From NCBI GenBank assembly GCA_041659765.1, contig JBAZXR010000001.1, positions 853,338-897,219 of the forward strand: a stretch of 43,882 nucleotides of DNA, in the 5' to 3' direction. The position numbers and the translations under genes were made by a program. Shown in pieces: positions 1,955 through 35,479 of this stretch. Within the stretch, counting starts at the first letter, position 1. Each line of letters starts with the position of its first letter. Under the pieces are notes generated by a model. It ran no database searches. It saw only the letters and a program-made list of their open reading frames with translations, and was not told the DNA's origin. Origin of the DNA: Patescibacteria group bacterium. Its GTDB lineage: Bacteria; Patescibacteriota; Patescibacteriia; UBA9934.

Positions 1955-2340
1955 ATTCCTTAGAAAAAGAAAAGGGGGCTCGGTTGCAAAGGGCGGTGCA
2001 AAGCATCTCCCGGCGGTTGAACCCCGATGGTCGAGCTAAGCTCGACCGGGCGGCATGGGGACCCAGGTATGTGATATTGGGTTCAGTGCACCGAGATTTC
2101 GGTGCGTTCAACTCAATAACCCATGTCCTCCTGTCCTTCAGGCCTAAGTGACGCCTGCTCTACCCCTCTCTTGGGTTCACGAATTGCTGTCCTTGCTTCG
2201 ACAGTCATTCATTGATCCAAAAGAGGAGGAGCGCAAGTGAGGTATCTTCCGAAGTGTTTGTGGGGCTTCGGGAAATTTCCCCTGTCATTGCCCGTGCCTA
2301 GAAAGGCACGGATAGGTTTTGTGGAAAGAACGATTACCAG
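1955..2340. other. unassigned hairpin-rich non-coding region (possible ncRNA or cluster of palindromic elements)
   Basis: About 400 nt with only short, low-quality ORFs. Local hairpins are visible at 2029-2047 (GGTCGAGCT-A-AGCTCGACC), 2075-2135, 2262-2283 and 2291-2310 (CCGTGCC...GGCACGG). On the minus strand a 10-bp helix CCUCUUUUGG/CCAAGAGAGG encloses a CUGUC/GACAG hairpin. On the minus strand the region ends in CCCCCUUUUCUUUUU about 30 nt before the dksA-like start. Confidence 0.3.
2019..2053. repeat. palindromic hairpin GAACCCCG..GGTCGAGCTNAGCTCGA..GGCGG, copy 1 of 2
   Basis: Near-identical to the hairpin at 33759-33796, read on the same strand. Confidence 0.6.
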
Positions 2341-7460: not shown

Positions 7461-7681
7461 CAGTTCAGACCATCGCCCTTGGTCCGCTTTTCGGCCGACA
7501 GCCGTCCGCGCTCCCTTTGGAGCCGCTCCATGCGTATTTGCGCTTTGATCGCATCATTCATGCACTCTGGTGGCATGGTGTTGGGAAAGGTCCCGACGAG
7601 CTCAAGCCCGATCAGGTCCGTTTCGTCGGGGATATCAAGCGGGCGCTCGGTATCCGAATGGTCGTTATCGCGGGGTGACAC
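7460..7681 (-). CDS. small charged hypothetical protein (73 aa, GTG start)
   Basis: High GC3. GAGG lies about 10 nt upstream of the GTG. Translationally coupled to 7272-7460. Confidence 0.45.
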   Translation of the reverse strand: MSPRDNDHSDTERPLDIPDETDLIGLELVGTFPNTMPPECMNDAIKAQIRMERLQRERGRLSAEKRTKGDGLN

Positions 7682-29928: not shown

Positions 29929-30627
29929 TCACGGTTTCACGATGATGGCGACCAGTTCGTCGTAGAAGAGTTGGAGCGCGTCCATGAACTCTTTGGTGCC
30001 CTGCTTCACATGCGTGAAAGCATTGTCGCTGTGCGGAACGATCATGAGCGCGCTCCGGAGCTTGAGCCCGTGGACCGCCGCGGCAGAGTACTCGGCGTAG
30101 TGTTTGCGCAAGTACTCCAACTCTGATAGACGCACCCCGTACTTTTTGCTTTTCACGAAGGCGTTGATTTGTCCCGGAATGATGTGGTGGTCAGTCATGA
30201 CGTCGAGCGCCAGGTAGGCGCCGAGCGATTTATAGACGCACGCGTGGTCCTCGTAGTCCCGGTTAACAAAGATGGCTTCCATCTGCTGAATGGCCGGGGT
30301 TATGGTCTCACGGAAGATGACGGGTTTTCCAAGAAGCCGCTTGGCCATATCCTGGTACAGCGCGCCGTGTTGTCGTTCGTTCTCCCGTACCTTCTCAATG
30401 ACGAGGGCGATTTCATCAAGCTCGTGATAGCGGAGGTTGCTCGGCATGGAGAACACGTTACGCGCGAGTGCGCAGAAGTGAGCCACGTGGCAGAGCCAGG
30501 CCTCCAGTTTTTCTGGCGGCGGCCTTCCTTGTGCCAGCAGGATAAAGACCAGATGGCGGTTGACTGGGTGCTCTTCAATCAGCGCCACGAGTGGTTCAAC
30601 GAAGCTGGTGTCCTGGTTGTTGTTCAA
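29929..30627 (-). CDS. heme-oxygenase-like-fold protein (iron-containing redox enzyme / PqqC-TenA-CADD-like), TTG start
   Basis: 232 aa, all-helical. It has the N-terminal HP...LL.G....KLE.W pattern, an ExxH motif (ENERQH) and later His/Asp clusters (DHH, HYAEYSAAAVH). GGAGG lies 4 nt before the TTG. Confidence 0.5.
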   Translation of the reverse strand: MNNNQDTSFVEPLVALIEEHPVNRHLVFILLAQGRPPPEKLEAWLCHVAHFCALARNVFSMPSNLRYHELDEIALVIEKVRENERQHGALYQDMAKRLLGKPVIFRETITPAIQQMEAIFVNRDYEDHACVYKSLGAYLALDVMTDHHIIPGQINAFVKSKKYGVRLSELEYLRKHYAEYSAAAVHGLKLRSALMIVPHSDNAFTHVKQGTKEFMDALQLFYDELVAIIVKP

Positions 30628-30643
30628 ATCTCCTCCCGCGTAG

Positions 30644-30672
30644 ATTATTCAAGTAAAACAGCGAATAGTCAA
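30644..30672 (-). promoter_or_regulatory. sigma70-type promoter for 29929-30627
   Basis: Minus strand TTGACT, 17 nt, AATAAT. Confidence 0.55.
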
Positions 30673-30696
30673 GAAAACAGGGGCAATGACGTGCAG

Positions 30697-30732
30697 AAAA
30701 AAAAGACCCACAGCGATGCGTCGCTGCGAGTC
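30697..30732 (-). terminator. intrinsic terminator after 30740-31285
   Basis: Minus strand hairpin CAGCGA-CGCA-TCGCTG with extended stem, then U8. Confidence 0.8.
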
Positions 30733-30739
30733 ATACTCA

Positions 30740-31285
30740 TTACGGTTTTTTTGTGGTTGCTCTCCGTTTGAATCCATCCTTTGGCCAGTCAGTGATCTTG
30801 AGTATGGAACAGGCTGTTTGCCATTCGGGGTTCACTCCGTCTGGTGACTGCTCAACCATGGCGAGCAGCATTTCGACCACATGCTTGGGCAGCGGGCGTT
30901 TCCCATGTAAGAATTTGGAGAGTTCTGTTGGGCTAGCTCCTACCTGTTTAGCGATTCTATAGTGCTGGTCAATTCGTCTCAGATACTCGGCCAGTACTTT
31001 GAGTGCATGTTCCAGAGAACCCTTTGGATCGCCACAGACCACTGGTCCTACCCGGGTAGGCGGATGGTGGTTGGTCCGTTGTTTTCGGAGCATCACGGAC
31101 ACAGTGGCGGACCTCCCGACCACCAGGCAGCGAAAGACGTGTTGAACCATCTTCTCGCACGCGGCCTGAGCGGCTGCCTCCATGTTCTTCAAGTCAGCGT
31201 CTTTGGGAACATTCACCGTTAGTTCATGCCTGAACTGCGCGAACCCCCTCTGTTCGAAATCAAAAGATAGCTCCTCATCTTTCAT
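30740..31285 (-). CDS. hypothetical protein with an XRE-like helix-turn-helix
   Basis: 181 aa. The segment IAKQVGASPTELSKFLHGKRPLPKHVVEML resembles Cro/XRE HTH. The N-terminal half is unrecognised. Confidence 0.55.
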   Translation of the reverse strand: MKDEELSFDFEQRGFAQFRHELTVNVPKDADLKNMEAAAQAACEKMVQHVFRCLVVGRSATVSVMLRKQRTNHHPPTRVGPVVCGDPKGSLEHALKVLAEYLRRIDQHYRIAKQVGASPTELSKFLHGKRPLPKHVVEMLLAMVEQSPDGVNPEWQTACSILKITDWPKDGFKRRATTKKP

Positions 31286-32466: not shown

Positions 32467-32564
32467 AAAAGACCCGCCACCCAGCTATTGTCGGGTAGGC
32501 TGGTTTTAGGTGGTGATATACCACAGATTTTATCTAATATTAGCTATATTATCAGGTATTTTAG

Positions 32565-32593
32565 TGGACAAAAGGCTGTTTTTATGCTATAGT
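32565..32593 (+). promoter_or_regulatory. sigma70-type promoter for 32679-33689
   Basis: TGGACA, 17 nt, TATAGT. A leader of about 80 nt follows, ending in GAGAGG before the ATG. Confidence 0.55.
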
Positions 32594-32678
32594 CCTTGGT
32601 TCGGTTTTTTTCTGGGATATTCCTAGGAATGGGCCGAAGAACAAGCGAATTCTTTCCCAATCACAAGAGAGGTGACTC

Positions 32679-33689
32679 ATGTCGCAGCAGGAACAGCAGA
32701 ATAACACCGGCGCAAAGACCCGCCCGATCCAGCCCCGCATCAACACCCGTTGCGGTGTGAACATGGATACGGCCTTTTCGGTCGCGCTCGTCGGGTGTTT
32801 GGTCCCGGAGTTTGAGAACGCGGAGATTTTCTTCCGCGACGCCGGCTGGAGCTGGCAGATGGGTCCCATGGAAGTGGCCATCGATCTCGACGCGGGTGGC
32901 GTGAGCTTCATGGCCGAGCCGGACTCCGAGGGCCGTGTGCGCTCGACGTTCGATCTCATCCGTAAGACCTACGGCCCGCAGGCCAACGACAAGCGGGTCG
33001 TGGACGCGCTCGAGCCTCTCGCGCAGTATCTGGACAACCAGAAAGCATACGGGTCCGAAGGGATCCGCATGATCGCTCCGAGCTTGACCGAGGCCGATGC
33101 CGAAAACGTCTCGGACTTCACCCTCGCCGGGGTCTTTCGCAGGGAGAGCAGGGCCATCCGTGGACGGGCGAAGCGCTTGGGCGAGTCCCCCGAATGGGCG
33201 GACTACCAGATCGTGTGCTGGGCCCGTGACCACCTGCGCGAGTACATCAGCGAGAAGATCTCCTATATGAACGCCGAGGCCAACGTGGTCCGCGCGATCC
33301 ACCGCAAGAAGATCATCATGCAGGAAGGAGGCGCGGTGGCCCTGTGTCTGGACCCGATCAAGTTCGTCCAGGAAGTCCTCTTCCGTAACTACGGCATCCG
33401 TGCCGTGGTGATCGTGGAGGACACGGACAACATCGTGGTCCGTCGCAAGGACTCCGAGCAGACGCGCATGGACCACCTGTTCATCCGCGAAGTGCTTGGA
33501 CGCTTCGGTGAGAAGATCGGGAACGGGCAGAACGACTGGTTCTCCCACCCTTCCGGATTCCTCCTTGCGTGGCAGACCCGTAGGGGCGAGCAGCGCGGGC
33601 GCGGAACCAAGGTGGATCCCTGGGACATGGCGGAAGCTGTGGAGCGTGCCATCCTGTTCGAGGATGCGCGTATCGCCCAGTCCAAGTGA
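32679..33689 (+). CDS. hypothetical protein (336 aa), strongly GC-rich orphan
   Basis: GC is about 61% in the first 120 nt (hand count). The fully open antisense ORF has the low-complexity L/R/G/H composition expected of a shadow frame. An RBS and a downstream terminator support the + frame. Confidence 0.6.
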   Translation: MSQQEQQNNTGAKTRPIQPRINTRCGVNMDTAFSVALVGCLVPEFENAEIFFRDAGWSWQMGPMEVAIDLDAGGVSFMAEPDSEGRVRSTFDLIRKTYGPQANDKRVVDALEPLAQYLDNQKAYGSEGIRMIAPSLTEADAENVSDFTLAGVFRRESRAIRGRAKRLGESPEWADYQIVCWARDHLREYISEKISYMNAEANVVRAIHRKKIIMQEGGAVALCLDPIKFVQEVLFRNYGIRAVVIVEDTDNIVVRRKDSEQTRMDHLFIREVLGRFGEKIGNGQNDWFSHPSGFLLAWQTRRGEQRGRGTKVDPWDMAEAVERAILFEDARIAQSK

Positions 33690-33714
33690 CATATCGGAGC
33701 TGAAACGCAGCTCG

Positions 33715-33745
33715 CCGGCATTCCCCTCTGGGAGTGCCGGTTTTT
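33715..33745 (+). terminator. intrinsic terminator after 32679-33689
   Basis: CCGGCA-14 nt-TGCCGG followed by TTTTT. Confidence 0.75.
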
Positions 33746-33750
33746 AAATT

Positions 33751-33794
33751 TAAAAGCAGAACCCCGCCGGTCGAGCTGAGCTCGATGGCGGGGG
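33751..33794 (-). terminator. intrinsic terminator after 33801-34265 (palindrome family copy 2)
   Basis: Minus strand CCCCGCCATCGAGC-TCA-GCTCGACCGGCGGGG followed by UUCUGCUUUU. Confidence 0.7.
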
Positions 33795-33800
33795 AACGAT

Positions 33801-34265
33801 TTATTGATCACCCGGGTACCCGTAGAGGACGGGGGCATTGCTGTCCGGGATAGTGCTGTAGAGCGTGAAAAGTTGATTCACGACTGTGAGCACGCGGCTT
33901 GTGCCATGCCACCGATGGATTTCGCAGGCTTCCTTGAGCGCGTCGAGCCGCTCGAGAATGGGGTATTCGCGGGAGAATATGTCCATCCCGCCCAGTCGCC
34001 AGTGCATGAAGCGGGCGAGGGTTTTGATCTCATGTCCGGGCGTGAACGGTTCAAAGCCTCGTTCTTCGAGCTGACCCAAGATCATGTCCATCTCGTACCG
34101 GTCGTATGCATCAACGGCCACCAGGTCATCGGCGTTCGTGAGGATTTCAAAGACGGTGTATCGGTCACCACTCCGAATGCGGGGGAGTTCCAGGCACAAG
34201 GGAAGGAACATGCGCAAAAAAGCCGTAGGATTGCGAGCGATCTGTCGGATCGTGGGCGCGTCCAT
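33801..34265 (-). CDS. hypothetical protein (154 aa), GC-rich orphan
   Basis: ORF convergent with 32679-33689 and with its own terminator. No motif recognised. Confidence 0.5.
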   Translation of the reverse strand: MDAPTIRQIARNPTAFLRMFLPLCLELPRIRSGDRYTVFEILTNADDLVAVDAYDRYEMDMILGQLEERGFEPFTPGHEIKTLARFMHWRLGGMDIFSREYPILERLDALKEACEIHRWHGTSRVLTVVNQLFTLYSTIPDSNAPVLYGYPGDQ

Positions 34266-34303
34266 GGAGCCTCCCGGAAAGGGGACAGAAAAAGCTTACC
34301 TGC

Positions 34304-35479
34304 TTACGCGCGGAAAATCAAAATCTTCCGGCCGACCAGTTGGTTCTGGTGGCGGTACATGAGGGGATCAAAGGGTGTCGGCACATGTTTGTAGCCGAGT
34401 TCTTCCATGATCCGTACGGCGTCGAGTTCGAGAATCTCGTCGTCGACAACATGGAACGGAGCGGTGAGCACAACGATGCCGTCAGGTTTTAATGTTGTTT
34501 TCAAAATCGAGAAGCTCTCGCGGTAGAGGGTTTCGACGTAGTCAATCGTCGTCTGTACATCTTCGACAGATTCAACTCCCTTGCGCGGGCGACCGAGGTA
34601 GGTTTCCGTAATAATTGCGTCTACAGAATTCGGTGCCATCTTCGACGCGATGTCGGACGCCTTTGAGACGTACACTTCGGCCACTGGCATGGATGGATTC
34701 TCTGAACGAATCCAGTTCAAGTTAGCAATCGAGTCTTCAGCGGCCATCGCGGCGATGTCTCCACCAATTAACCGTTCAGCGCCGAGTAAGCCAGCTTCCA
34801 TGAGCACAGTTCCAGAGCCACAGAATGGATCCATCACTGTCTTTCCGTTCATGTTTGAACCGGCCAAATTTACCATCATGCGAGCGAGCTTCGGGGGGAG
34901 CATGCCTTGCTTAGCATTACGACGTGGGCGTTCCATGTCGCGGTGTGACCAAACGTCTACATCCTGAACAGCCAAAGTCTTGCCAATCAAAATGTCATTC
35001 TTGCGAACAATGAAAACAAACTCCGCGCCCTTTTTGAGCAAGTCATTGTTCTTGATGACCACGCTCGACAATGTTGGTTCACGGGAAATAACGTAACGCG
35101 CAGAGCGACCAGCGTCCTTTAAGTACGTCTTAATATCAAAACCCAAGTTCTTCAGCTTTGCACGGGTATCTCCCAGCTTCTGGCCATCTTCGCCGTAAAC
35201 GCTGACACCCACGTGCACCTTTCCCTCGGGGAACTGCTCGATGAGGTCTGCACCGACAAACGCTGCCAGTTCTTTCGTGTCCACGTTCGTGATTGAACCG
35301 ACAATGCTGCCTAGCTTCTGAACCCCGCCGAGGCGGTTCTGTAAATCCCCAAAAGCCCACTGAACATCGTCAAAAACTCCAAATTCACCCTCATGCCAGG
35401 ACGGCTGAGAACCAGTTGCGGCATGGATTTCTGCCAATGAAATGTTGGGATGGGCTCCCAGAAGGGCGAAGGATTGCAT
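34304..35479 (-). CDS. class I SAM-dependent methyltransferase, UPF0020/Trm11-like (probable RNA methyltransferase)
   Basis: SAM motif I VMDPFCGSGTVLMEAGLLG. The motif IV position reads ITETYLG instead of the usual (D/N)PPY. Confidence 0.7.
   Translation of the reverse strand: MQSFALLGAHPNISLAEIHAATGSQPSWHEGEFGVFDDVQWAFGDLQNRLGGVQKLGSIVGSITNVDTKELAAFVGADLIEQFPEGKVHVGVSVYGEDGQKLGDTRAKLKNLGFDIKTYLKDAGRSARYVISREPTLSSVVIKNNDLLKKGAEFVFIVRKNDILIGKTLAVQDVDVWSHRDMERPRRNAKQGMLPPKLARMMVNLAGSNMNGKTVMDPFCGSGTVLMEAGLLGAERLIGGDIAAMAAEDSIANLNWIRSENPSMPVAEVYVSKASDIASKMAPNSVDAIITETYLGRPRKGVESVEDVQTTIDYVETLYRESFSILKTTLKPDGIVVLTAPFHVVDDEILELDAVRIMEELGYKHVPTPFDPLMYRHQNQLVGRKILIFRA

Follow-up and report, generated by a model that had tools for sequence, protein, structure and literature searches.

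Two convergent genes in a variable chromosomal slot of a Patescibacteria bacterium: a predicted DHH/DHHA1-fold protein and a genus-restricted orphan beside an RNA methyltransferase gene

Whether two adjacent accessory genes work together or simply lie side by side is the question raised by a 43.9-kb stretch of DNA (the window) from an ultra-small bacterium of the Candidate Phyla Radiation (CPR, Patescibacteria). The genome of the window (G000; 0.92 Mb [921 kb] in two contigs, 99.7% complete) carries, between ychF and a methyltransferase gene, two convergent open reading frames (ORFs) that encode a 336-aa protein (P0001; 32679..33689, plus strand) and a 154-aa protein (P0002; 33801..34265, minus strand). 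An earlier note on this DNA took them for an acquired two-gene cassette of unrecognizable proteins, perhaps with a role in defense, and both ORFs, together with the full-length open antisense frames it described, are indeed present. The explanation that we favor, with confidence a little above even, is that the genes belong to two unrelated units, namely, an accessory, degenerate DHH/DHHA1 protein (P0001) and an orphan in a methyltransferase operon (P0002).

Neither protein gave a significant match in Pfam, NCBIfam, PADLOC, or PHROGs, and a word-indexed search found only two relatives of P0001, with 66% and 59% identity. An exhaustive HMMER profile search with P0001 collected 174 cluster representatives (clusters at 50% identity), 112 of them at E ≤ 1e-10. 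By modeling P0001 with AlphaFold2 on an 86-sequence alignment, we obtained a structure with a predicted local distance difference test score (pLDDT) of 94.1 and a predicted template modeling score (pTM) of 0.87; the model built on three sequences (pLDDT 48.7) was unusable. Foldseek returned 52 matches in the PDB at E ≤ 1e-3, and the top matches listed were all DHH/DHHA1 proteins (PggH, NrnA, TM1595, GdpP, RecJ, and NrN). The best of them (PggH, NrnA, TM1595, GdpP, and RecJ) reached an E value of 1e-6 with a probability of 1.0, and the closest structures are nucleotide phosphodiesterases. A VIA-align search, which is independent of Foldseek, aligned the N-domain (residues 16 to 193) to DHH domains (Z 9.2, 145 residues, 3.9 Å) and the C-domain (residues 194 to 328) to DHHA1 domains (Z 6.8, 107 residues, 3.9 Å), with ranks 1 to 13 occupied by DHH/DHHA1 enzymes or RecJ/Cdc45/GAN-type relatives; DHH phosphohydrolases also matched P0001 in the BFVD viral structure library. 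Global TM-scores were low because the inter-domain orientation differs. In the predicted structure, P0001 has the DHH plus DHHA1 two-domain fold, a ChrB_C-like DHH domain (about residues 16 to 193, including a long helical linker) being followed by a DHHA1-like domain (about residues 194 to 328). With this fold and 174 cluster representatives, P0001 can no longer be called unrecognizable.

At the sequence level, the family of P0001 has its best link to the C-terminal domain of ChrB (ChrB_C, PF09828). The ChrB_C profile covered residues 5 to 158 of the relative P0013 at 31.1 bits (cut-off, 25 bits), and where relatives match it, their N-domain does so over the whole profile; 16 of the 86 family members matched it (E ≤ 0.01), and 9 of the 86 weakly matched the Pfam DHH profile in the same region. 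P0001 itself had no ChrB_C match at E ≤ 1 and no match to PF01368 (DHH; cut-off, 28.1 bits), for which the best relative scored 23.5 bits, and when the 86-sequence alignment was run as a profile against PDB sequences, only noise came back (E > 0.3). Intact members carry the motifs TH...DxD, D(I/L)xAGGxGxKG, (H)S, and DxxD in the N-domain and RR...D and WFxHxxGF in the C-domain, and the family motif TH...DLDA..S aligns with H...DGD...S of the genome's own NrnA-like protein. In the ESM Atlas, ChrB_C-linked clusters and MYG1 clusters lay near P0001. The family, an uncurated one within the DHH/DHHA1 phosphoesterase superfamily, combines a ChrB_C-type domain with a DHHA1-like one, and this pairing indicates that the ChrB_C domain is DHH-like as well.

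We next compared P0001 with the rest of the family, in which 16 polar positions are shared by 80% or more of the members. P0001 retains 9 of them (family median, 15) and is among the five lowest of the 86 sequences. The replacements are H24R, D28N (the first Asp of DxD), D65E, G76S, K78M, G79A, and D122K; G76S, K78M, and G79A fall in the near-invariant GxKG loop and are changed in P0001 alone of its clade. Retained are D30, D69, S89, D119, D175, E278, W287, H290, and G293, as well as the DHHA1-type motifs predicted to bind substrate (R255/R256, D265, H290, and G293). Motif I has H24 in 74, D28 in 77, and D30 in all of 83 family sequences, and P0001 has R24, N28, and D30 there; in motifs II to IV, whose columns were assigned by order and spacing, position 88 is Arg (His in 63% of the family), D122 has become Lys, and D69 and D119 are kept. 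The titles of PDB entries name D-to-N mutants of TM1595 as inactive, which supports, without proving, the importance of D28N.

The closest kin of P0001 are P0005, its orthologue in a second genome of the genus (G006), and P0006 from one Logan metagenome assembly, and the three make up the whole clade. A quick IQ-TREE analysis gave this clade a support of 100 and a stem of 0.88 and nested it in a support-98 group whose other members, except for P0009, are intact; the residue losses are therefore secondary. The clade has lost the first Asp of DxD and the second one of DxxD; in P0001 itself, the His of motif I and three Gly/Lys-loop residues are gone as well. Within the clade, position 24 is R/H/Q, position 28 is N/N/S, position 65 is E/Q/D, and position 122 is K/E/Q, and since the members differ at these once-conserved positions, the pattern looks more like relaxed constraint than like a new conserved site. 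In the same tree, the branch of P0001 measures 0.28 and that of the G006 orthologue 0.12. The ratio of nonsynonymous to synonymous substitution rates (dN/dS) between G000 and G006 was 0.34 for P0001 and about 0.04 for the methyltransferase and SSB.

The wider family has a different setting. Among 400 other genomes of the phylum, 19, from as many genera, contained a match to its profile, and the distant CPR homologues (276 to 302 aa, 21 to 28% identity to representatives) have motif I intact. They stand in a co-oriented cluster with the order frr, rseP, proS, X, HIT hydrolase, yqeY, ybeY, dnaX, ybaB, prs, recR, where X is the homologue; the cluster is conserved in at least 10 of the 14 CPR loci examined (L093-L106, e.g., L093:2945-13989), which come from different families of the phylum. 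Additionally, the intact relative P0012 adjoins proteins that resemble RNase Y and HU by their N-termini, neither of which was profile-scanned. The relatives' contexts are those of housekeeping RNA and nucleotide functions, not defense islands, and the family in the CPR cluster may be an uncharacterized RNA- or nucleotide-processing enzyme. The hint at defense in the earlier note found no backing: neither P0001 nor P0002, the two proteins scanned, matched PADLOC-DB v2 (E ≤ 1) or PHROGs, and the relatives of P0001 lie among housekeeping genes. The genome of the window contains, in addition, genes for a canonical NrnA-like enzyme and for another protein with a DHH domain (569 aa), which by its length is probably RecJ.

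The two genes of the slot have separate transcription signals. P0001 is preceded by a sigma-70-like promoter (32565..32593, plus strand; TGGACA-17 nt-TATAGT with a TG extension, 10/12 match) and a leader of about 85 nt (32594..32678, plus strand), in which a purine-rich ribosome-binding site (RBS; GAGAGGTGA) ends 4 nt 5' of the ATG, and it is followed by an intrinsic terminator with a 12-bp stem and a T-run (33714..33741, plus strand; -32.6 kcal/mol, z -6.1, where z compares folding energy with that of shuffled sequence). Promoter-like sites are about as frequent in shuffled sequence (1.8 expected in the region), and such a site says little by itself. On the minus strand, the methyltransferase-P0002 unit ends in its own intrinsic terminator (33752..33793; -24.3 kcal/mol, z -4.1), which contains the TCGAGCTGAGCTCGA palindrome. 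The 0.92-Mb genome has three copies of the palindrome core TCGAGCTNAGCTCGA, where 0.004 would be expected; two are in the window (2031-2045 and 33771-33785), the third is at G000:C1:563569, and all are embedded in longer GC-rich hairpins that resemble terminators. Apart from the leader, which had been put at 80 nt, the signals described in the earlier note were all recovered as described. Two of the three palindrome copies also resemble each other over about 30 nt of their flanks (GAACCCCG...GGCGG). On balance, we regard P0001 as a monocistronic unit with its own promoter and terminator, independent of the methyltransferase-P0002 unit, with the same slight lean as for the explanation as a whole.

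P0002 is tied to its other neighbor. The methyltransferase gene upstream of it (34304..35479, minus strand) is core, being present in 15 of 15 good-quality genomes of the genus, and is context only, with no part in an island; its product is closest to the tRNA/rRNA guanine-N2 enzymes Trm11/TrmG10, Trm14, and RlmL. P0002 starts 38 nt downstream on the same strand with a GGGAGG RBS at 34270-34275, the gap is 24 to 40 nt in all three genomes that have P0002, and no promoter or terminator was detected at the junction. Homologues of P0002 occur in 2 of the 18 other genus genomes and nowhere beyond: a search of 5.8 billion proteins, with the single sequence and with a profile, found none outside the genus, and the ESM Atlas gave no usable match (pLDDT of the Atlas model, 0.49). 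The homologue in G008 (32% identity, labeled hypothetical protein by NCBI) stands beside the methyltransferase gene without P0001, and that in G006 is 55 to 58% identical in its N-terminal part and is split by a frameshift. Residues 5 to 18 are conserved, which supports the 154-aa start over the 136-aa database call. We may conclude, though with little more than even confidence as part of the whole explanation, that P0002 is an orphan that evolves fast and closes the operon of a core RNA guanine-N2 (m2G) methyltransferase; it could be an accessory factor of the methyltransferase. As for the supposed cassette, the separate signals and the occurrence of P0002 without P0001 in G008 mean that the two genes do not form one. 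The methyltransferase itself has a normal S-adenosylmethionine motif I (DPFCGSGT) and an atypical catalytic motif IV, with ETYLG where Trm11/RlmL-type enzymes have (D/N)PPY.

On this explanation, P0001 and P0002 stand tail to tail for the sole reason that ychF and the methyltransferase gene, which converge, enclose a slot of variable content in the genus. Core genes flank it (those for YchF, the methyltransferase, SSB, an EpmA-like protein, EF-P, FtsK, and RecA), and the gap itself (32467-34303 in the window, counterparts in L013-L023) differs from species to species. It is near-empty (53 to 67 bp) in three species, holds a sigma-70 family factor in four (G003, G004, G010, and G014) and an SLT-type transglycosylase in four (G002, G007, G014, and G015), and contains P0001 and/or P0002 in three. 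We considered P0002 as a remnant of the sigma-70 factor found in other species and rejected this (hhalign probability, 0.4%). The slot boundaries show no tRNA and no mobility gene, and direct and inverted repeats there are all at chance level. Of the 18 other genomes of the genus, 1 has P0001, and across 185,579 GTDB species one record carries it; its clade had no match in phages, plasmids, IMG/VR, or JGI metagenomes. The co-occurrence check proposed in the earlier note shows P0001 and P0002 adjacent also in G006, in two genomes in all.

The composition of the locus is unusual, as had been claimed: GC reaches 0.637 at 32701-33300, the maximum of the window, against about 0.50 elsewhere, and the overall values are 0.627 for the P0001 gene and 0.572 for the P0002 gene. 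When codon usage was compared with about 700 proxy genes from the whole genome, P0001 ranked at the top in GC at third codon positions (GC3 0.84, z +4.0), its GC1 and GC2 being unremarkable, and P0002 was mildly deviant (GC3 0.70, z +2.0). The deviation of P0001 lies almost wholly at third codon positions, and the third-position periodicity of GC confirms the sense frames. Both antisense ORFs are by-products and not genes: the one on the minus strand (32661..33692, 343 aa) shares the codon register of P0001 and follows from the GC3 of 0.84 of that gene, and the one on the plus strand (33804..34394, 196 aa) covers P0002 together with the end of the methyltransferase gene. They stay open because they are in register with the sense genes and A-ending codons are avoided, and their products had no family matches. 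High GC3 as a mark of high expression was rejected, since the top-GC3 genes are mostly hypothetical genes without a Pfam family, not translation genes. Several of the highest-GC3 genes of the genome are clustered outside the window (G000:C1:16600-25300 and 33100-44200), most of them without a Pfam family, and may form a larger accessory block sharing the unusual codon usage of P0001. Two minus-strand genes in the window at 29929-31285, between the fiber locus and ychF (232 aa, GC3 0.75, and 181 aa), have no Pfam match and were not found in the syntenic G006 locus, so that ychF has variable accessory genes on both sides.

The history of P0001 can be read from its orthologue. The G006 gene has a GC3 of 0.836, although the flanking genes have come close to saturation at synonymous sites between G000 and G006; a recent arrival of P0001 is therefore doubtful. 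Different codons are used at 30% of the conserved residues of P0001 (saturation for this composition, 47%) and at 51% of those of the methyltransferase (saturation, 60%). Judging from these sequences, P0001 seems to have been in both lineages roughly since they parted, with its odd composition kept. The gene may once have been acquired, and it is accessory; of the features of a genomic island, atypical composition and patchy distribution were found, and mobility signatures and recent arrival were not. Thus, of the acquired accessory genes proposed in the earlier note, the accessory status of both genes and the compositional extreme of P0001 stood, and recent acquisition became doubtful, given the GC3 of the G006 orthologue and the lack of mobility marks.

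According to the above-described analysis, the intact family members, judging from their neighbors, probably act as metal-dependent hydrolases of phosphorylated RNA or nucleotides. The P0001 clade would have branched from intact ancestors and then lost presumed metal-ligand Asp residues, and, as the most likely mechanism, P0001 would have ceased to work efficiently as a two-metal phosphoesterase. With purifying selection relaxed, the protein may survive by binding or sensing a phosphate-bearing ligand, as has been proposed for the oxyanion-sensing C-domain of ChrB, or as a weak enzyme. Several points weigh against this account. The metal-binding residues of the family appear to be such from their motif positions and not from a residue-level superposition, and in an hhalign comparison with a 30-sequence NrnA alignment only motif I aligned (E 0.08), the rest being insignificant. 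H88R says little, as the column is 63% His and several otherwise intact members have Arg. Asn and Glu can ligate metals, and the G006 orthologue (H24, N28, D30, D69, H88, D119, and E122) could be active; the intact ORF, the good expression signals, and a dN/dS below 1 suggest that P0001 has some function. Concerning the other unit, the methyltransferase gene and P0002 are probably co-transcribed, as suggested by their spacing and the lack of detected signals. The frameshift in G006 (L007:7272-7740, read in two frames with the break near a C/T homopolymer stretch at 7462-7475) could be a long-read assembly error or real decay.

A first alternative is that P0001 is still an active phosphoesterase with a remodeled, perhaps one-metal site, whose substrate might be pAp, nanoRNA, a cyclic or linear dinucleotide, or an NrN-like signaling nucleotide. 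We consider this realistic but rather unlikely. D30, D69, S89, D119, D175, H290, and the DHHA1 motifs remain, the intact ORF has a promoter, RBS, and terminator under a dN/dS of 0.34, and the nearest structures are nucleotide phosphodiesterases, yet the clade members disagree at positions 24, 28, 65, and 122, three GxKG-loop residues are changed in P0001 alone, and the genome already has the NrnA-like enzyme and the 569-aa DHH-domain protein. The opposite extreme, a functionless P0001 decaying toward a pseudogene in a reduced genome, seems improbable. Its constraint is roughly nine-fold looser than that of its neighbors, its branch is about twice that of the G006 orthologue (0.28 versus 0.12), family-invariant residues are lost, and the adjacent P0002 is frame-shifted in G006. 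However, G000, G006, and the Logan assemblies all preserve an unbroken frame of 336 codons, the three clade members have 145 invariant positions in common, dN/dS is well below 1, the extreme GC3 is kept in both orthologues, and small CPR genomes delete useless DNA quickly.

The least credible reading, to which we give hardly any weight, is that P0001 and P0002 form a new two-gene system, such as a defense or an effector/immunity pair. It draws on their adjacency in two genomes, their accessory status, and the lack of curated-family matches, and DHH-fold enzymes do occur in signaling-based defense, e.g., NrN, crystallized with SAM-AMP according to its PDB title. However, the genes are convergent with separate terminators, P0002 sits in the methyltransferase operon and occurs without P0001 in G008, and the two genomes are closely related, their flanks being about 90% identical, which makes the adjacency an inherited one that did not arise independently. 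PADLOC has no match, and the relatives of P0001 have housekeeping neighbors and no P0002-like partner. Co-transcription and obligate co-occurrence, as in toxin-antitoxin or effector-immunity pairs, were not found for P0001 and P0002. Returning to the two unrelated units, a more specific proposal for P0001 can be offered only tentatively, as speculation that we think unlikely to hold in full: its clade would be a DHH/DHHA1 pseudoenzyme, a sensor or sequesterer of a phosphorylated nucleotide or oxyanion, derived from the CPR housekeeping phosphoesterase family (proS-HIT/yqeY/ybeY), with its extreme GC3 actively maintained, for example, by codon- or mRNA-level selection.

Compared with known systems, P0001 shares the DHH-linker-DHHA1 layout of the DHH/DHHA1 enzymes (NrnA, TM1595/TmPDE, PggH, the GdpP catalytic domain, NrN, and the RecJ core); motif I of NrnA, H...DxD...S, aligns with that of the P0001 family, and by our reading of the alignments the C-domain has R-rich and ...H..G motifs at the DHHA1 RxRxR/GGGH positions. 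In contrast to these enzymes, the family has (H)S in place of the canonical DHH triplet, similarity is insignificant beyond motif I, the P0001 model has a much longer helical hairpin as its linker (residues 138 to 208), and P0001 lacks the first Asp of DxD and any Pfam DHH match. An experimental study of ChrB proposes its C-terminal domain as the chromate (oxyanion) sensing part (PMC3817168), which is a precedent for a domain of this type serving as an oxyanion sensor and not as a catalyst. Unlike ChrB, P0001 has no ChrB_N or helix-turn-helix match, its DHH-like domain starts at about residue 16 and is followed by the DHHA1-like domain, and in place of the linkage of ChrB to chrA it has no chromate-resistance gene nearby, its neighbors being ychF, the RNA methyltransferase gene, and SSB. 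MYG1/UPF0160 (PF03690), an exonuclease family of the DHH superfamily, is similar in size and two-domain layout, a lead from the ESM Atlas only (TM 0.58 to 0.64); neither P0001 nor any of the 26 relatives scanned individually had a Pfam match to PF03690.

The main outcome of this analysis is a correction, in which a suspected defense cassette has become two unrelated genes, one of them with a known fold. The CPR family members are candidate RNA- or nucleotide-processing enzymes in organisms of minimal metabolism. P0001 offers a natural case of a scaffold losing its presumed metal ligands under continued selection, which could be useful for comparing enzyme with pseudoenzyme.

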